Made by a program: the position numbers and the translations under genes
Source of the DNA: a virus
Taxonomy: Duplodnaviria; Heunggongvirae; Uroviricota; Caudoviricetes
DNA: 6,833 bases
Virus record (IMG/VR): IMGVR_UViG_2663762857_000020
Strand: one strand, 5' to 3'
Part shown: positions 186 to 6,833 of the stretch, piece after piece
How the letters are laid out: every line of letters begins with the position of its first letter
How positions within the stretch are numbered: position 1 is the first letter of the stretch
Notes under the pieces: generated by a model
Seen by the model: the letters and a program-made list of their open reading frames with translations, nothing else
The model's database searches: none
What the model was told of the DNA's origin: nothing

Positions 186-380
186 ATGACATTTATTCAT
201 CAGGTGATGCTGTACTTCTGTACGGCGGTCTGTGTGCTGTATCTTCTTTCGGGTGGGTACAGGGCAGTGCGCGATTTCTGGCGCAGGCAGATTGATAAAA
301 GGGCCGCAGAGAAAATCAGCGCCAGTCAGTCAGCCGGAGCAAAAACAGAAGCCCCACTCATTCCGGAACAACCTTCTTAA
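186..380 (+). CDS. Hypothetical small protein (64 aa) with one predicted N-terminal transmembrane helix
   Basis: ORF from the six-frame track; hydrophobic stretch VMLYFCTAVCVLYLLSGGY followed by a charged tail. No clear Shine-Dalgarno; no homolog recognised. Confidence 0.3.
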   Translation: MTFIHQVMLYFCTAVCVLYLLSGGYRAVRDFWRRQIDKRAAEKISASQSAGAKTEAPLIPEQPS

Positions 381-405: not shown

Positions 406-696
406 ATGTCAGAAATAAAATCGCTGGTCACTGCTGAGGCAGTGAAGGAAGTCCTGCGCTCTGAAGAAGTCCGGAGCGCACTGAAACAGCAACTTCGGCA
501 GAACCTTGAGGCGCGTCTTGATGCAGAAGTGGATTCAATTCTGGATGAATTGCTTGGTGCACAGCCGGAACCATCCCCGGAACTGCTTCCGGAACCACAG
601 GCGGAAGATGTCACCACGGAAAATGGTGATATTCAGCCGGAGCCACCGGTGACGGATATGACAGACACACAGCCAGAATCGGGCACAATGCTGTAA
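406..696 (+). CDS. Hypothetical acidic protein (96 aa), helical N-terminal half and Pro/Glu-rich C-terminal half
   Basis: ATG at 406 preceded by a weak SD (GAG ~9 nt upstream). The track ORF 232..696 is the same frame with an upstream ATG lacking an RBS and overlapping the 186..380 ORF, so the 406 start is preferred. About 22 D/E versus 7 K/R by hand count. Confidence 0.5.
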   Translation: MSEIKSLVTAEAVKEVLRSEEVRSALKQQLRQNLEARLDAEVDSILDELLGAQPEPSPELLPEPQAEDVTTENGDIQPEPPVTDMTDTQPESGTML

Positions 697-771: not shown

Positions 772-987
772 ATGTACCAGATGGAAAAAATCACAACAGG
801 TGTGTCATACACCACGTCAGCGGTGGGAACGGGCTACTGGTTCCTGCAGTTGCTGGACAGGGTTTCCCCGTCTCAGTGGGCGGCAATAGGCGTGCTGGGG
901 AGTCTGTTGTTTGGGCTGCTGACATATCTGACTAACCTGTATTTCAAAATCAGAGAGGACCGTCGTAAGGCGGCGCGGGGAGAGTAA
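772..987 (+). CDS. essQ: Class II holin / pinholin of the phage 21 S21 (EssD/EssQ) family, 71 aa, with dual-start motif
   Basis: Protein [71 protein letters not shown] matches recalled S21/EssD/EssQ sequence nearly residue for residue. Two transmembrane segments, charged C-terminus, Met1 and Met4 starts, strong SD GGGAGACGGGG at 760-770. Confidence 0.9.
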
Positions 988-991
988 AGCG

Positions 992-1336
992 ATGAAGAAA
1001 AAATACGAACTGGTTGTTAAAGGGATAAATAATTACCCGAATAAGATTACTGTTACTGTGGCACTGGAAATTGGTGGGTATCCGTCACTGTTGTTGCCAG
1101 ATGTGGCGATTAGTCTTGACCGTACTGAAGATGCCACGCTGGAGTTTTACGAAGCTGAGGCGAAAAAGCAGGCGAAGCAGTTTTTCATGGATGTTGCTGC
1201 CGGGTTATGTGAAGGGGATGGTCCGTTGCCGGAAAAGCGCCCCGTAATTTTAGAGGCGCAGGATGTGTTGATAACCTACAGAGGAAAACTACCGGGAATA
1301 ATTACTGGTTCTCTGAAGACTCCACCGCTGGCCTGA
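992..1336 (+). CDS. Small hypothetical protein (114 aa) between holin and endolysin; tentatively DUF1327/YdfR-like
   Basis: ORF starts 4 nt after the holin stop, with GGGGAGAG upstream (translational coupling likely). It occupies the position of ydfR between essQ and rrrQ in the E. coli Qin prophage. The family assignment is from memory of gene order, not sequence comparison. Confidence 0.6.
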   Translation: MKKKYELVVKGINNYPNKITVTVALEIGGYPSLLLPDVAISLDRTEDATLEFYEAEAKKQAKQFFMDVAAGLCEGDGPLPEKRPVILEAQDVLITYRGKLPGIITGSLKTPPLA

Positions 1337-1386: not shown

Positions 1387-2424
1387 ATGAACACCAAAAT
1401 CAAATACGGCCTGTCGGCTGCCGTTCTGGCGCTGATTGCCGCAGGTGCGCCTGCGCCTGAAATCCTCGACCAGTTTCTGGATGAAAAGGAAGGTAACCAC
1501 ACCACGGCATACCGTGATGGCGCGGGTATCTGGACCATCTGCCGCGGTGCCATCCTGGTGGATAGTAAACCTGTCGTTCCGGGCATGAAGTTGTCGAAGG
1601 AAAAATGCGACCAGGTTAACGCCATTGAGCGTGATAAAGCGCTGGCGTGGGTGGAGAAAAACATCAGAGTGCCGCTGACCGAACCCCAGAAAGCGGGGAT
1701 CGCGTCATTCTGTCCGTACAACATTGGTCCCGGTAAGTGTTTCCCGTCGACGTTTTACAGACGAATTAATGCTGGTGATCGCAGGGGAGCATGCGAGGCG
1801 ATTCGCTGGTGGATTAAGGACGGTGAGCGGTATTTTTTCTGTAATGAGCTGAATGAAAAAGGGGAGCCGGTCACCTGGCAGGGGCGGCAATATCAGGCGT
1901 ACCCGATTGAGGGGAGTGGCTTTGAGATGAACGGAAAGGGCAGCAGTGCCCGCCCGTCGCTGACGGTGTCCAATCTTTTCGGCCTTGTCACCGGAATGGC
2001 GGAGGATTTGCAGAGCCTGGTGGGGGCCACGGTGGTCCGCCGCCGGGTGTATGCCCGTTTTCTGGATGCGGTGAATTTCGTTGCGGGCAATCCGGAAGCG
2101 GACCCGGAGCAGGAGCTGAGTGACCGCTGGGTGGTGGAGCAGATGTCGCAGCTGACAGCCATGACGGCCTCGTTTGTGCTGGCCACACCGACCGAGACGG
2201 ACGGGGCGCTGTTTCCCGGTCGTATCATGCTGGCGAACACCTGTATGTGGACCTACCGCTCTGATGAGTGTGGTTACACGGGCGGGGCTGTGGCGGATGA
2301 GTTCGATAAACCCACCACGGATATCCGTAAGGACAGATGCAGCAAGTGCATGCGCGGGTGTGAACTGCGCAGGAATGTCGGCAATTTTGGCGGTTTCCTT
2401 TCCATTAATAAACTTTCGCAGTAA
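1387..2424 (+). CDS. Chimeric ORF (345 aa): SAR-type lysozyme of the R21/RrrD family (T4-lysozyme-like, GH24), residues ~1-146, fused in frame to the C-terminal ~198 residues of lambda-type minor tail protein L
   Basis: N-terminus has a Gly/Ala-rich SAR segment (YGLSAAVLALIAAGAPAP) and the E-8aa-D-5aa-T catalytic spacing (E35, D44, T50 in EGNHTTAYRDGAGIWT). From ERYFFCNELNEKGEPVTWQGRQYQ to the C-terminal NVGNFGGFLSINKLSQ it matches recalled lambda L from about residue 33 onward, including the four C-terminal cysteines. Junction is at codons 146/147 (nt 1822-1827). The lysozyme C-terminus and the L N-terminus are both missing. Confidence 0.8.
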   Translation: MNTKIKYGLSAAVLALIAAGAPAPEILDQFLDEKEGNHTTAYRDGAGIWTICRGAILVDSKPVVPGMKLSKEKCDQVNAIERDKALAWVEKNIRVPLTEPQKAGIASFCPYNIGPGKCFPSTFYRRINAGDRRGACEAIRWWIKDGERYFFCNELNEKGEPVTWQGRQYQAYPIEGSGFEMNGKGSSARPSLTVSNLFGLVTGMAEDLQSLVGATVVRRRVYARFLDAVNFVAGNPEADPEQELSDRWVVEQMSQLTAMTASFVLATPTETDGALFPGRIMLANTCMWTYRSDECGYTGGAVADEFDKPTTDIRKDRCSKCMRGCELRRNVGNFGGFLSINKLSQ

Positions 2425-2434
2425 ATCCCGGTTT

Positions 2435-3178
2435 ATGACACAGACTGAATCAGCGATTCTGGCGCATGCCCGGCGGTGTGCGCCTGCGGAGTCGTGCGGC
2501 TTCGTGATAAGCACGCCGGAGGGCAACCAGTACCAGCCGTGCGTGAATATCTCTGCAGAGCCTGAGGCGTATTTTCGTATCGCACCGGAAGACTGGCTGC
2601 GGGCAGAGATGCAGGGGGAGATTGTGGCACTGGTCCACAGTCATCCCGGTGGTCTGCCCTGGCTGAGCGAGGCTGACCGGCGGCTGCAGATAAAAAGCGC
2701 ACTGCCCTGGTGGCTGGTCAGCCGGGGTGACATTCACAAATTCCGCTGTGTGCCACATCTGACAGGACGGCGCTTTGCGCACGGGGTGACGGACTGTTAC
2801 ACGCTGTTCCGGGATGCATACCATCTGGCAGGCATTGATATGCCGGATTTTCACCGTGAGGATGACTGGTGGTGCAACGGTCAGAACCTTTACCTGGACA
2901 ATATGGAGGAAACGGGCTTTTACCGGGTGCCCCTGTCCTCTGCACTGCCGGGCGATATCCTGCTGTGCTGCTTCGGCGCATCGGTGGCTAATCATGCCGC
3001 CATTTACTGCGGCAACGGTGAACTGCTTCACCATCTGCCTGAACAACTGAGTAAACGGGAGAGGTATTCCGAAAAATGGCAACGACGAACGCATTCTGTC
3101 TGGCGTCACCGCCACTGGCACGCATCTGCCTTCACGGGGATTTACAACGATTTGGCCGCCGCCTCAGCCTGTATGTGA
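2435..3178 (+). CDS. K: Tail tip assembly protein K (MPN/JAMM-like plus NlpC/P60-like domains), 247 aa
   Basis: Near-colinear match to recalled lambda K (MTQTESAILAHARRCAPAESCGFVISTPEG...). HSHPGGLPWLSEAD (HxH...S..D) JAMM-like motif, and NlpC/P60-type Cys (GVTDCYTLF) and His (NHAAIY). Starts 11 nt after the L-fusion stop. Confidence 0.9.
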   Translation: MTQTESAILAHARRCAPAESCGFVISTPEGNQYQPCVNISAEPEAYFRIAPEDWLRAEMQGEIVALVHSHPGGLPWLSEADRRLQIKSALPWWLVSRGDIHKFRCVPHLTGRRFAHGVTDCYTLFRDAYHLAGIDMPDFHREDDWWCNGQNLYLDNMEETGFYRVPLSSALPGDILLCCFGASVANHAAIYCGNGELLHHLPEQLSKRERYSEKWQRRTHSVWRHRHWHASAFTGIYNDLAAASACM

Positions 3179-3756
3179 ACACGGCAGCGGAAGCCATCCG
3201 CGCACTGTCGATGCAGGTGCCGGGCTTTCGCCGTCAGATGAACGAAGGCTGGTACCAGATACGCATTGCCGGTGAGGATACGGCACCGGAGGCGGTGTAT
3301 GCCCGCCTTCACGAACCACTGAGTGAGGGAACGGTTATCCATATTGTGCCGCGACTGGCCGGGGCCGGAAAGGGAGGACTGCAGATTGTGCTGGGGGCGG
3401 CAGCCATCGTGGGCTCTTTCCTCACTGCCGGTGCCTCGATGGCGTTATGGGGTACAGCCCTGAGTGCCGGCGGTTTTTCTGCCACCACGATGCTGTTTTC
3501 ACTGGGGGCCAGCATGATTCTGGGTGGTGTGGCCCAGATGCTGGCCCCGAAGGCAAAAACACCGGATTACCGCGCAACGGATAACGGCAGACAGAACACG
3601 TATTTTTCGTCACTGGACAACATGATTGCCCAGGGTAACCCGATGCCGGTGCCTTACGGGGAAATGCTGGTTGGCTCCCGCCGTATATCCCAGGACATCA
3701 GTACCCGTGATGAAGGCGGGTGCGGAAAGGTCGTGGTTATCGGGCGGCAGGGGTAA
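3076..3756 (+). CDS. I: Tail tip assembly protein I, 226 aa
   Basis: Matches recalled lambda I family (...LHGDLQRFGRRLSLYVNTAAEAIRALSMQVPGFRRQMNEGWYQIRIAGED...). Overlaps the 3' end of K by 103 nt in another frame, the same arrangement I recall for lambda K/I. SD GGGAGAGG at 3057-3064. Confidence 0.9.
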   Translation: MATTNAFCLASPPLARICLHGDLQRFGRRLSLYVNTAAEAIRALSMQVPGFRRQMNEGWYQIRIAGEDTAPEAVYARLHEPLSEGTVIHIVPRLAGAGKGGLQIVLGAAAIVGSFLTAGASMALWGTALSAGGFSATTMLFSLGASMILGGVAQMLAPKAKTPDYRATDNGRQNTYFSSLDNMIAQGNPMPVPYGEMLVGSRRISQDISTRDEGGCGKVVVIGRQG

Positions 3757-3760
3757 AAAG

Positions 3761-3798
3761 AATAAAAAAAATCCCGCAGTGATCGCGGAGCTGCGGGG
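3761..3798 (-). terminator. Rho-independent terminator, minus strand
   Basis: Minus-strand RNA reads CCCCGCAG-(11-nt loop)-CUGCGGG followed directly by UUUUUUUU (+ strand A-run 3763-3770). 7-bp GC-rich stem at 3773-3779 / 3791-3797. No U-tract follows the stem on the + strand. Confidence 0.7.
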
Positions 3799-3858
3799 AC
3801 AGACAAAGATTAGAGTTAAGGAGTTGTTTTTGTTACTCGGGCAAAAAAACACTAACGC
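3762..3858 (-). ncRNA. Candidate small RNA (~95 nt) in the I-J intergenic insert, antisense to the tail operon
   Basis: Bounded by the minus-strand promoter at 3865-3892 (predicted start near G at 3858) and the terminator at 3761-3798. No ATG in the transcribed segment. Predicted RNA has a 5' stem (GUUUUUU / AAAAAC), a single-stranded CA-rich and CU-rich region (AACAAAAACAACUCCUUAACUCUAAUCUUUGUCUGU) and a terminator with U-tail, the layout typical of Hfq-dependent sRNAs. Confidence 0.45.
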
Positions 3859-3864
3859 AGCGAA

Positions 3865-3892
3865 ATTATACGCGCCACAGTCAGTTTGTGAA
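3865..3892 (-). promoter_or_regulatory. Sigma70-type promoter, minus strand: -35 TTCACA, 16-bp spacer, -10 TATAAT
   Basis: Minus strand reads TTCACAaactgactgtggcgcgTATAAT. The -10 is a perfect consensus (+ strand 3865-3870), the -35 is 5/6 (+ strand 3887-3892), and a purine sits 7 nt downstream. Confidence 0.5.
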
Positions 3893-3964
3893 AATGTGAA
3901 GATATTCAGAATTTTTATGCCATTACCGGTTTTTACCAACAGGATTATCGGTGGACATGAAAGA

Positions 3965-3999
3965 AAACCCCGGTATCTGCTGATACCGGGGTTTCTCTT
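3965..3999. terminator. Strong GC-rich hairpin, terminator-like in both orientations
   Basis: Stem AAACCCCGGTATC (3965-3977) pairs with GATACCGGGGTTT (3982-3994) around a 4-nt loop TGCT. Followed on the + strand by TTTCTCTTT; on the minus strand the stem is followed by a U-rich stretch. A second short inverted repeat, AGCATG (4001-4006) / CATGCT (4021-4026), follows. Confidence 0.35.
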
Positions 4000-4097
4000 T
4001 AGCATGGCAGAAATGTGTTTCATGCTTTTCGGGCGAAGGATATCCGACTTCTGTACGGAATGGCAAGTGGCGGTTAATTTATTCAGGGGAAGGCTGT

Positions 4098-6833
4098 ATG
4101 GGAAAAGGTGGCGGTAAGGCACACACGCCTCGTGAGGCGAAGGATAATCTCAAATCCACGCAGATGATGAGCGTGATTGATGCGGTTGGTGAGGGACCGA
4201 TAGAAGGCCCGGTGAAGGGACTGCAGAGTATCCTGGTGAACAAAACCCCGCTGACGGACACGGACGGTAATCCCGTGATACACGGTGTGACGGCGGTCTG
4301 GCGCGCCGGGGAGCAGGAGCAGACACCACCGGAAGGCTTTGAGTCCTCCGGAGCTGAAACTGTACTGGGCGTGGAAGTGACGAAGGCAAAACCGGTGACG
4401 CGCACCATTACGTCCGCGAACATTGACCGCCTGCGGGTTACCTTCGGGGTGCAGTCACTGGTGCAGACCACGTCAAAGGGTGACCGAAACCCGACATCCG
4501 TCCGCCTGCTGATTCAGTTACAGCGTAACGGTAACTGGGTGACAGAAAAGGATGTCACCATTAACGGCAAGACCACCTCGCAGTTTCTGGCGTCGGTGAT
4601 TCTGGATAATCTGCCTCCCCGTCCTTTTAACATCCGGATGGTCCGGGAGACGGCGGACAGCACCACGGACCAGTTGCAGAACAGAACACTCTGGTCATCG
4701 TACACCGAAATCATCGATGTGAAACAGTGCTACCCGAACACGGCGATTGTGGGGCTGCAGGTGGATGCGGAGCAGTTCGGTGGTCAGCAGATGACGGTGA
4801 ACTACCATATCCGCGGTCGCATCATCCAGGTGCCGTCAAACTATGACCCGGAAAAACGCACCTACAGCGGTATCTGGGACGGCAGTCTGAAACCGGCATA
4901 CAGCAACAACCCGGCCTGGTGCCTGTGGGACATGCTGACTCACCCGCGCTACGGGATGGGAAAACGTCTGGGGGCGGCGGATGTGGACAAGTGGGCGCTG
5001 TATGCCATCGGGCAGTACTGCGACCAGACGGTCCCGGATGGTTTCGGGGGCACAGAGCCGCGGATGACCTTTAATGCGTACCTGGCACAACAGCGTAAGG
5101 CGTGGGACGTTCTCAGTGATTTCTGCTCGGCGATGCGCTGTATGCCGGTATGGAACGGCCAGACGCTGACGTTCGTTCAGGACCGCCCGTCGGATGTGGT
5201 GTGGCCGTACACCAACAGCGATGTGGTGGTGGATGATAACGGCGTGGGGTTCCGCTACAGCTTCAGTGCCCTGAAGGACCGGCACACGGCGGTGGAGGTG
5301 AATTACACCGACCCGCAGAACGGCTGGCAGACCTCCACGGAACTGGTGGAAGACCCGGAAGCCATACTGCGCTACGGACGCAACCTGCTGAAGATGGATG
5401 CGTTCGGCTGCACCAGTCGCGGTCAGGCCCACCGTGCCGGGCTGTGGGTGATAAAGACAGAACTGCTGGAAACGCAGACGGTGGATTTCACACTCGGGTC
5501 ACAGGGGCTGCGGCACACACCCGGTGACATCATTGAAATCTGTGATAACGACTATGCCGGAACCCTGACCGGCGGACGTGTCCTGTCCATTGATGCTGCC
5601 ACCCGCACCCTGACGCTGGACCGTGAAGTGACACTTCCGGGGACAGGTACATCGACGGTGAACCTGATTAACGGCAGCGGTAAGCCGGTGAGTGTGGACA
5701 TCACCGCACACCCCGCGCCGGACCGGATACAGGTCAGTACCCTGCCTGATGGTGTGGAGACATACGGGGTGTGGGGACTCTCCCTGCCGTCACTGCGCCG
5801 TCGCCTGTTCCGCTGTGTCTCCATCCGGGAAAACACGGACGGCACCTTTGCCATCACGGCGGTGCAGCACGTACCGGAAAAAGAAGCCATTGTGGATAAC
5901 GGAGCCCGCTTTGAGCCGCAGTCAGGCACCCTGAACAGCGTTATCCCACCGGCAGTACAGCACCTCACGGTGGAGGTGAGCGCAGCTGACAGCCAGTATC
6001 TGGCGCTGGCGAAATGGGACACGCCGAGGGTGGTGAAGGGCGTGCGCTTCAGTCTGCGCCTGACCAGTGGAAGCGATGAGAACAGCCGCCTGCTGACCAC
6101 CGCCATCACTGCCGATACGGAGCACCGTTTCAGTGGCCTGCCTCTCGGGGAATACACCCTGACGGTCAGGGCGATAAACAGCTACGGCCAGCAGGGCGAA
6201 CCGGCCACCACCACGTTCCGGATTAATGCGCCTGCAGCACCGGCCACCATTGAGCTGACGCCGGGGTATTTTCAGATAACGGCGGTACCGCGTCTTGCGG
6301 TGTATGACCCGACGGTGCAGTTTGAGTTCTGGTTTTCGGAGGCAAAAATTGCAGACGCCGCACAGGTGGAAACCTCTGCCCGTTATCTGGGGACCGGCAG
6401 TCAGTGGAGTGTCTCCGGTCCGCACATTAAGCCCGGAAAGGATTTCTGGTTTTATGTGCGCAGCGTCAACCTGGTGGGTAAATCTGCTTTTGTGGAAGCC
6501 AGTGGACGGGCGAGCAATGATGCTGCGGGCTATCTGGAACTTTTCCGGGAAAAGATAGGAAAAACGCATCTGGCAGAGGCGCTGTGGGCAGAGATTGACA
6601 ACAGTCAGCTGAAGGACGAGATGGCGGAAATGCAGACCACCATCACCGAAACCCGCAATGAAATCACACAGACGGTCAGTAAAACGCTGGAGGACCAGAG
6701 CGCCACCATACAGCAAATCCAGCGTGTGCAGACGGACACCCGTAATGACCTGAACAGCATGTGGGCGGTGAAGCTGCAGAAGATGCAGGACGGACGCCTT
6801 TATATTGCCGGTATTGGTGCAGGCATTGAGAAT
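4098..6833 (+). CDS. J: Tail tip / host specificity protein J, N-terminal 912 codons (3' end beyond the window)
   Basis: ATG at 4098 with SD AGGGGAAGG. Hand translation is open and in frame to the window end. Matches recalled lambda J from the N-terminus (MGKG..HTPREAKDNLKSTQ..) through conserved blocks (NPAWCLWDMLTHPRYGMGKRLGAADVDKWALY, RLFRCVSIRENTDGTFAITAVQHVPEKEAIVDNGA, VYDPTVQFEFWFSE). The last ~100 residues in the window diverge from lambda. Confidence 0.95.
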   Translation, partial: MGKGGGKAHTPREAKDNLKSTQMMSVIDAVGEGPIEGPVKGLQSILVNKTPLTDTDGNPVIHGVTAVWRAGEQEQTPPEGFESSGAETVLGVEVTKAKPVTRTITSANIDRLRVTFGVQSLVQTTSKGDRNPTSVRLLIQLQRNGNWVTEKDVTINGKTTSQFLASVILDNLPPRPFNIRMVRETADSTTDQLQNRTLWSSYTEIIDVKQCYPNTAIVGLQVDAEQFGGQQMTVNYHIRGRIIQVPSNYDPEKRTYSGIWDGSLKPAYSNNPAWCLWDMLTHPRYGMGKRLGAADVDKWALYAIGQYCDQTVPDGFGGTEPRMTFNAYLAQQRKAWDVLSDFCSAMRCMPVWNGQTLTFVQDRPSDVVWPYTNSDVVVDDNGVGFRYSFSALKDRHTAVEVNYTDPQNGWQTSTELVEDPEAILRYGRNLLKMDAFGCTSRGQAHRAGLWVIKTELLETQTVDFTLGSQGLRHTPGDIIEICDNDYAGTLTGGRVLSIDAATRTLTLDREVTLPGTGTSTVNLINGSGKPVSVDITAHPAPDRIQVSTLPDGVETYGVWGLSLPSLRRRLFRCVSIRENTDGTFAITAVQHVPEKEAIVDNGARFEPQSGTLNSVIPPAVQHLTVEVSAADSQYLALAKWDTPRVVKGVRFSLRLTSGSDENSRLLTTAITADTEHRFSGLPLGEYTLTVRAINSYGQQGEPATTTFRINAPAAPATIELTPGYFQITAVPRLAVYDPTVQFEFWFSEAKIADAAQVETSARYLGTGSQWSVSGPHIKPGKDFWFYVRSVNLVGKSAFVEASGRASNDAAGYLELFREKIGKTHLAEALWAEIDNSQLKDEMAEMQTTITETRNEITQTVSKTLEDQSATIQQIQRVQTDTRNDLNSMWAVKLQKMQDGRLYIAGIGAGIEN

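Follow-up and report, generated by a model that had tools for sequence, protein, structure and literature searches.

Does an open reading frame (ORF) that joins a phage lysozyme to a tail tip protein encode a working two-domain enzyme, or does it mark the place where a prophage lost the genes that once lay between them? The question is raised by a 345-codon ORF (plus stop, with an ATG start) within a window of 6833 bases, the whole stretch of DNA analysed here, which is the entire contig CDQW01002556.1 of assembly GCA_000936715.1. Residues 1–146 of the predicted product are residues 1–146 of a lysozyme, and residues 147–345 are residues 34–232 of tail tip protein L. An initial annotation had described this ORF as an in-frame lysozyme::L chimera, a description borne out by the ORF list and by a two-domain Pfam match within a single frame: Phage_lysozyme at amino acids 33–147 (76.2 bits against a cut-off of 22.3; profile 2–112 of 125) and Phage_tail_L at amino acids 146–343 (305.9 bits; profile 5–206 of 206). 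It had also hinted that the in-frame junction was noteworthy; the prior for an in-frame join is, however, one in three and the frame is evidence of nothing.

Its sequence marks the window as the late region of a prophage of the lambdoid, Stx-phage-like type, most closely related to E. coli prophages, at 96–99.8% identity, and to Stx-converting phages; this level of identity to E. coli prophages points to Escherichia/Shigella as the probable host. All of the listed genes are on the + strand (Table 1). Retention of the holin had been claimed as well, and it is indeed intact, being identical over 71 of 71 residues to the holin of the intact prophage JE86-ST05 (L007). Only the first 912 codons of J lie in the window, the full 1176-amino-acid protein being encoded on a sister contig (L004). 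A search of Rfam at E ≤ 0.1 gave no match anywhere in the window. For a candidate small RNA in the spacer between I and J, identity with AgvB was considered and rejected, as AgvB and AsxR sit at the pR' moron site (PMC4104026). The + strand between positions 1 and 4200 yielded no sigma-70-like promoter; expression of the fusion would therefore need an upstream late promoter, and its transcription would rely on a Q-dependent late promoter located upstream of the contig.

Table 1. Features of the 6833-base window, with positions counted from its first base.
Feature	Position	Strand	Basis
nanS-p-type esterase gene, final codons only	window start	+	
DUF1378	186–380	+	
DUF826	406–696	+	
Class II (P21 S-type) holin, 71 aa, intact, Met1/Met4 dual start	772–987	+	Pfam PF04971, 112.5 bits
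YdfR/DUF1327, between holin and lysozyme	992–1336	+	Pfam PF07041; position matches relatives
Chimeric lysozyme::L ORF	1387–2424	+	ORF list, Pfam two-domain match, NCBIfam TIGR01600
Lysozyme part, aa 1–146 of a 177-aa P21-R/RrrQ-type GH24 SAR endolysin	1387–1824	+	Pfam PF00959, structure alignment
SAR-like N-terminal segment Y7–P24, YGLSAAVLALIAAGAPAP	1405–1458	+	composition, hydropathy; SAR criteria PMC9239132
Catalytic motif E35-x8-D44-x5-T50	codons 1489–1491, 1516–1518, 1534–1536 (1489–1536)	+	
Deletion junction, AGGACGGTG	1817–1825	+	three-way alignment, BLAST end points
L part, lambda gpL residues 34–232, iron-binding C-terminal domain complete	1825–2424	+	8IYK_L alignment, TIGR01600
Predicted Fe–S ligand cysteines C286, C295, C318, C325	2242–2244, 2269–2271, 2338–2340, 2359–2361	+	offset-113 mapping
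Non-ligand C321 (lambda C208)	2347–2349	+	
Tail assembly protein K (JAB/MPN + NlpC/P60), intact	2435–3178	+	Pfam; 247 aa, equal to reference
Tail assembly protein I, intact	3175–3756	+	Pfam PF06805; gene call
I–J spacer, 341 bp	between 3756 and 4098		
Tail tip/host specificity protein J, cut by contig end	4098–6833	+	gene calls, Pfam, relatives' annotations

Taken alone, the lysozyme part of the ORF scores 77.2 bits against the Phage_lysozyme profile. The E-8-D-5-T spacing attributed to it is present, with E35, D44 and T50 arranged as in the canonical lysozyme triad motif, E-x8-D-x5-T (PMC9239132). The claim of a SAR segment also stands on composition and hydropathy: K4 and K6 precede an uncharged, Ala/Gly/Ser-rich stretch (Y7–P24) in which G, A, S and T make up 59% of residues 8–24 and the best 17-residue Kyte–Doolittle mean is 1.77, and this fits the published description of a SAR domain, in which basic residues at the N-terminus precede a transmembrane segment that is weakly hydrophobic and G/A/S-rich (PMC9239132). 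The definitive test of such a segment is membrane release via a pinholin or depolarisation (PMC9239132).

The C-terminus of the enzyme is where the fusion departs from its intact relatives. About 88% of the Pfam lysozyme profile is kept (PF00959 positions 2–110/112 of 125, by comparison with 2–125 of 125 in an intact relative), but the C-terminal 31 of 177 residues, GRDCRIRSNNCYGQVSRRDQESALACWGIDR, are deleted along with the end of the Pfam domain and a conserved C-terminal helix, such that the domain is incomplete. The intact relative aligns over residues 12–174 with 3HDE (the P21 SAR endolysin) and with 4ZPU; the 31 lost residues align with P21 R residues 143–163, and among them the stretch GQVSRRDQES aligns with GLMTRREIER (GLMTRREIER...W) of the P21 R C-terminal helix. 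In T4 lysozyme the equivalent helix bears Arg145, which forms a salt bridge to the catalytic Glu11. Because the corresponding helix is deleted, the fusion enzyme would be expected to be destabilised or inactive, and enzyme activity has probably been lost through this truncation. AlphaFold2 modelling of the fusion with a 20-sequence alignment gave a mean pLDDT of 40.6 and a pTM of 0.29, values too poor to judge the folding of the truncated domains.

The L part aligns without gaps to residues 32–232 of lambda gpL (chain 8IYK_L; E = 7e-112, ~80% identity, offset 113) and is 99.8% identical to intact L genes at the DNA level. Its PF05100 match of 305.9 bits places it in the L family, and TIGR01600 matches with 330.6 bits against a cut-off of 70.75, covering profile positions 22–224 of 224 by comparison with 1–224 in intact L. 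The N-terminal HDI beta-sandwich of lambda gpL is formed by residues 1–166 (PMC10721106); with residues 1–33 of L deleted, about one-fifth of this beta-sandwich is gone and the domain is again incomplete. Further along the protein, cryo-EM of the lambda tail located [4Fe-4S] density in gpL ringed by Cys173, Cys182, Cys205 and Cys212 (PMC10721106). All four predicted ligand positions are kept in the fusion, with the cysteines invariant or nearly so in 20 L homologues. The reading of four C-terminal cysteines as an Fe–S motif can be upheld in that the strings CGYTGG and CSKCMRGC are present and the ligands are kept, but the four that were named need revision: the C-terminal cysteines of the L part number five (286, 295, 318, 321 and 325), of which C286 had been omitted and the non-ligand C321 had been counted.

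The manner in which the two halves came together can be read from their arrangement in other genomes. When the ORF was compared by megablast with 5426 complete E. coli genomes it split cleanly, the L-side match starting at 1817 and the lysis-side DNA homology stopping at 1825; in several of these genomes both halves are present in one prophage, ~15–17 kb apart. In the intact relative JE86-ST05, the lysozyme gene is at 9355–9888 and the L gene at 24824–25522, and the window is collinear with both flanks, minus 15,130 bp. The interval in JE86-ST05 comprises two small ORFs, an Rz-type lysis protein and both terminase subunits; the portal, protease, decoration, capsid, FI and head–tail joining proteins; and the tail proteins Z, U, V, G, T, H and M. 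Since the last five of these genes, V to M, fall inside the missing interval, L in the window has none of them in cis.

A three-way alignment set the window against lysozyme and L as they occur in JE86-ST05 (L007) and JNEC-KY204 (L003). At the junction the parental lysozyme sequence reads AAGGACGGTG up to the break and GCAGAGAC beyond it, the parental L sequence reads CAGGGCGGTG and then AGCGGTAT, and the window reads AAGGACGGTGAGCGGTAT. Exact microhomology is limited to the 5 bp CGGTG (1821–1825), with eight of nine bases shared across AGGNCGGTG (1817–1825). Within it, GGT is a glycine codon in equal phase in both parental genes, and as a consequence the product is in frame. An intact relative is thus collinear and short microhomology alone is found at the junction, as in a deletion scar, and a single RecA-independent, microhomology-mediated deletion is the probable origin of the ORF. 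By comparison with the intact JE86-ST05 codons, the lysozyme part has 16 synonymous and 6 non-synonymous differences and the L part 9 and 1, respectively; these represent divergence of the intact lineages and not evolution following the fusion.

The junction is very rare. Among ~15 billion proteins the exact protein was found on three contigs only (L004, L005 and the window), all of them from draft assemblies, namely GCA_000936715.1, GCA_000944435.1 and GCA_001373195.1. No match with ≥ 80% coverage of the ORF was found in the 5426 complete E. coli genomes or in 50,697 phage records, and the junction-spanning 32-mer GGTGGATTAAGGACGGTGAGCGGTATTTTTTC was absent from the GTDB species representatives and JGI metagenomes; its one match in IMG/VR was the sister contig L005. 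A HMMER scan of 1.84 billion cluster representatives returned lysozyme-only or L-only matches, with none of the best 150 spanning both halves. Two sets of apparent exceptions were rejected. An apparent 72% coverage of the ORF in SRCC 1675 (H1) is not the junction: an N-terminal piece of L is followed there by a complete lysozyme gene that is separate from it. The odd-length top protein matches (P0001, P0002, P0003, P0005, P0070 and P0075) are internal-duplication artefacts and not fusions. The SRCC 1675 match sits at the end of a frameshift-rich record.

Between 908 and 2440 no base differs among the three carrier contigs, whose overall divergence is 1–1.4%, with the differences clustered in K, J and the upstream region; these clusters have the look of recombination with other lambdoid prophages, or of effects of the assembly consensus, rather than of point mutation. 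Given that the flanks differ to this extent, the carriers are not one assembly repeated, and the junction has either persisted through some diversification or been transferred. As there is no substitution in the ORF among its three copies, dN/dS is not computable and has no power here.

Deletions of the same interval have also occurred independently in two complete genomes, as an Rz::L fusion in CEA601S and as an IS1-associated event in JNEC-KY204. At least a dozen singleton in-frame chimeras were present in the best 120 L-related clusters, the partners of L being terminase, capsid E, T, M, Nu1, a LacI-type regulator, K and I; and the representative set contained lysozymes of the same type cut at 137, 148 and 158 and followed by unrelated sequence (P0144, P0138 and P0136, respectively). 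In-frame scars are thus an expected and frequent by-product of prophage decay, and the one-in-three prior for the frame provides no argument for function.

Topology is a further consideration for any product of this ORF. [4Fe-4S] clusters are inserted in the cytoplasm and not in the periplasm, and proteins pass through Sec as unfolded chains. For SAR endolysins, export is by Sec and places the catalytic domain in the periplasm (PMC9239132), and the L moiety, being C-terminal to the lysozyme domain, would be exported as well. Given where clusters are inserted and the unfolded state of Sec substrates, the kept cysteines are unlikely to bind a cluster in this protein; with Sec taking the L moiety out of the cytoplasm, their retention would have no obvious consequence. 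The exported L domain would also sit apart from cytoplasmic tail assembly.

The initial annotation had proposed that the product could be a membrane-tethered muralytic protein carrying a tail domain, a proposal left unsupported by the truncation of both domains, the lack of any variation on which dN/dS could draw, a near-unique junction that belongs to no conserved architecture, the commonness of singleton chimeras and the predicted export of the L moiety. We consider it unlikely that the chimera is expressed as a tethered and then released muralytic enzyme with a tail domain that, with the intact pinholin, lyses or weakens the host. In its favour are an intact native start, SAR-like segment and E35/D44/T50 triad, a holin that is the same as in intact prophages, and the retention of most of the lysozyme profile (~88%). 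Against it, the last 31 residues are gone, including the segment matching the P21 R C-terminal helix, a 199-residue cytoplasmic Fe–S domain would need to cross the membrane by way of Sec, no Rz/Rz1 spanin genes are left after the deletion, and there is neither conservation of the fusion nor variation with which to test for selection. A narrower form, in which a chimera made from the late transcript has some muralytic activity and together with the intact pinholin brings about residual, spanin-less lysis or envelope weakening that the carriers have kept, is quite improbable; the periplasmic, cluster-free gpL domain would then be a mere bulky tail.

The identical junction in three separately assembled genomes with differing flanks, a shared sequence at the junction of 5–9 bp, which is far below any assembler k-mer, and the analogous real deletions in complete genomes together make it very unlikely that the ORF is an assembly artefact joining two prophage regions in fragmented short-read assemblies. 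This is despite the state of the three source assemblies, each with > 2300 contigs according to contig numbering, the frequent mis-assembly of lambdoid prophage repeats, and the obvious internal-duplication artefacts among database relatives (P0001, P0005, P0070 and P0075). We also give very little credence, the least of all, to retention of the remnant as an interference module, in which defective gpL with K, I and J would disrupt the assembly of tail tips by other lambdoid phages, whether resident in the same cell or superinfecting it. In lambda, gpL and gpJ together make up the last tail ring, and gpL also contacts gpM (PMC10721106); a faulty gpL subunit in this ring could in principle be dominant-negative, and open reading frames survive for L (minus 33 residues), K, I and J. 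L is placed behind a SAR export signal, however, and would go to the periplasm, away from tail assembly (PMC9239132); in addition, the junction is nearly unique and there is no evidence of selection.

We conclude, with a probability of about 0.87, that the ORF is a recent in-frame deletion scar in a defective lambdoid prophage, a reading for which the observed anatomy of the ORF, the parental arrangement, the junction, its rarity and its lack of variation all argue. The ancestor would have had the late gene order nanS-p, DUF1378, DUF826, holin S, ydfR, lysozyme R, Rz, terminase and head genes, continuing with tail genes Z through M and ending with L, K, I and J. A recombination event joining the CGGTG of lysozyme codons 145–147 to that of L codons 32–34 would have removed ~15.1 kb, and with it Rz, terminase, the whole set of head genes and the tail genes from Z to M. 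The lysozyme frame would then have run on into the L frame to end at the stop codon of L, its predicted product consisting of a SAR anchor, a GH24 domain minus its last helix and gpL minus its first 33 residues. The resulting element would be unable to make heads, tail tubes or spanins, with L, K, I and J as leftovers.

The ORF itself carries no disabling change: its start, triad, SAR-like segment and predicted Fe–S cysteines are intact, as is the upstream holin, and K, I and J are open. That the fusion and L, K, I and J are still open would be due to the recency of the event and not to selection. If the late transcript is made, the protein would most likely end up exported by Sec as a chimera that is misfolded, weakly active or inactive. 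There is no sign of a selected function and we infer that the ORF has none. Were the fusion nevertheless active, it would mean that a GH24 SAR endolysin can do without its last helix and can carry a large passenger at its C-terminus, which would be of modest interest for endolysin engineering.

Features of this kind are familiar, and the novelty is confined to the individual junction. Its biological importance is little; it is a clean worked case of one microhomology-mediated deletion mimicking a designed two-domain protein, and as such a caution for annotation and for the mining of domain architectures. The conserved catalytic and metal-binding residues in this chimera would point only to a recent event and are no proof that its product works.

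Virion-associated peptidoglycan hydrolases are genuine fusions of tail proteins and lysins that occur in many tailed phages with conserved architectures and functional tails. The present ORF resembles them in combining tail structural and muralytic modules in one polypeptide, but differs in being confined to three assemblies, in the truncation of both modules and in the deletion of the tail module set; and with no match to both halves among the best 150 of 1.84 billion representatives, its architecture is not a conserved one. By comparison with the SAR endolysins P21 R and E. coli RrrD–RrrQ (GH24; 3HDE, 3HDF and 4ZPU), the fusion has the same basic N-terminus and weakly hydrophobic segment, E-x8-D-x5-T at 35/44/50 and a class II (P21 S-type) holin upstream; unlike them, it has 199 foreign residues in place of the C-terminal 31 (profile ~111–125 and beyond) and is not followed by Rz/Rz1. 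With lambda gpL (8IYK chain L; PF05100, TIGR01600) it shares an intact iron-binding domain, the four ligand positions and the K, I and J genes that follow, whereas residues 1–33 are missing, a lysozyme with its export signal precedes L, and the genes V, G, T, H and M are not in cis.

The decay of cryptic lambdoid prophages, such as DLP12, Rac and Qin of E. coli K-12, has likewise involved the internal loss of the morphogenesis genes that separate the lysis cassette from the genes of the distal tail. The remnants in the window, S–ydfR–R with L/K/I/J, are as in such decayed prophages, and were compared directly with those of CEA601S and JNEC-KY204. By comparison with the deletions in these two strains, the one described here is an event of its own, in which CGGTG links lysozyme codon 146 with L codon 34; it happens to preserve both native frames, so that the scar has the look of a clean two-domain protein instead of being annotated as a pseudogene.

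The three contigs that carry the lysozyme::L junction (the window and its sister contigs L004 and L005) show no differences at all across positions 908-2440, and the differences that do separate them are tightly clustered, with clusters in K (2441-3046) and in J (5522-5655 and 6203-6302). In K, for example, L004 and L005 have in common 29 substitutions by comparison with the window. Two readings fit this clustering: co-resident lambdoid prophages may have exchanged sequence by gene conversion, or repeats may have been collapsed into a consensus in short-read assemblies. Upstream of the junction, the interval from ydfR to the lysozyme gene is longer in relatives by 300-570 bp (8735-9302 in the intact prophage of JE86-ST05; 4095-4404 in the locus from JNEC-KY204), and this extra segment holds a small minus-strand hypothetical ORF; it is absent from the window, where the corresponding site is at 1327-1343.

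The reverse order, an L fragment followed by lysozyme, was found in E. coli SRCC 1675 at the end of record NZ_CP015023.1 (5910-6903 of that locus). The fragment is N-terminal and lacks the C-terminus of L, and a complete lysozyme gene begins 55 bp further on. Most of the tail genes beside it are flagged as frameshifted in this record. The reversed order may reflect a rearrangement or an assembly problem. Protein databases also hold many singleton chimeras with lambda-type L (among them P0047, P0049, P0050, P0051, P0055, P0066 and P0074), in which the lambda partner varies (terminase A, T, capsid E or M) and the joining point stays the same, at L codons 3-5 (...D|IRQETL). In lambda L, this point coincides with an EcoRV site (GATATC). 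Rather than natural deletions, these chimeras may represent laboratory constructs or artefacts of assembling lambda control DNA.

Predicted transcription signals in the window are listed in the table.

Predicted transcription signals and the I-J spacer (arrows run 5' to 3' on the minus strand)
Feature	Position	Strand	Detail
Terminator-like hairpin	72->60	minus	Followed by T7; immediately past the esterase (nanS-p) stop codon
Terminator-like hairpin	706-734	plus	T-run; DUF826-holin gap, within late operon
Tail-gene I-J spacer	3757-4097		Non-coding; 341 bp
Near-consensus sigma-70 promoter	3892->3865	minus	TTCACA-16-TATAAT; 11/12 consensus match
Intrinsic terminator	3789->3773	minus	Hairpin + T8; downstream of spacer promoter
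Strong 14-bp hairpin	3995->3964	minus	In I-J spacer

The hairpin past nanS-p falls in the gap from the nanS-p stop to DUF1378 (51-185), and with its T7 tract it points to a transcript running leftward here, between two genes of the late operon. The plus-strand hairpin is presumably read through by Q-modified polymerase.

Together, the promoter and terminator of the I-J spacer would yield a predicted minus-strand small RNA of approximately 90 nt. The fold z-score is only -1.5, and an Rfam search of the whole window (E <= 0.1) gave no match in the spacer. AgvB and AsxR were considered and rejected as its identity, because these are located at the pR' moron site (PMC4104026). Among 5,426 complete E. 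coli genomes, 1,445 (O157:H7 and ST131 strains among them) carry the spacer at >=80% coverage, and none of the 12 E. coli records listed annotates it. It has no counterpart in lambda, since genes I and J abut there; in the window they stand 341 bp apart.
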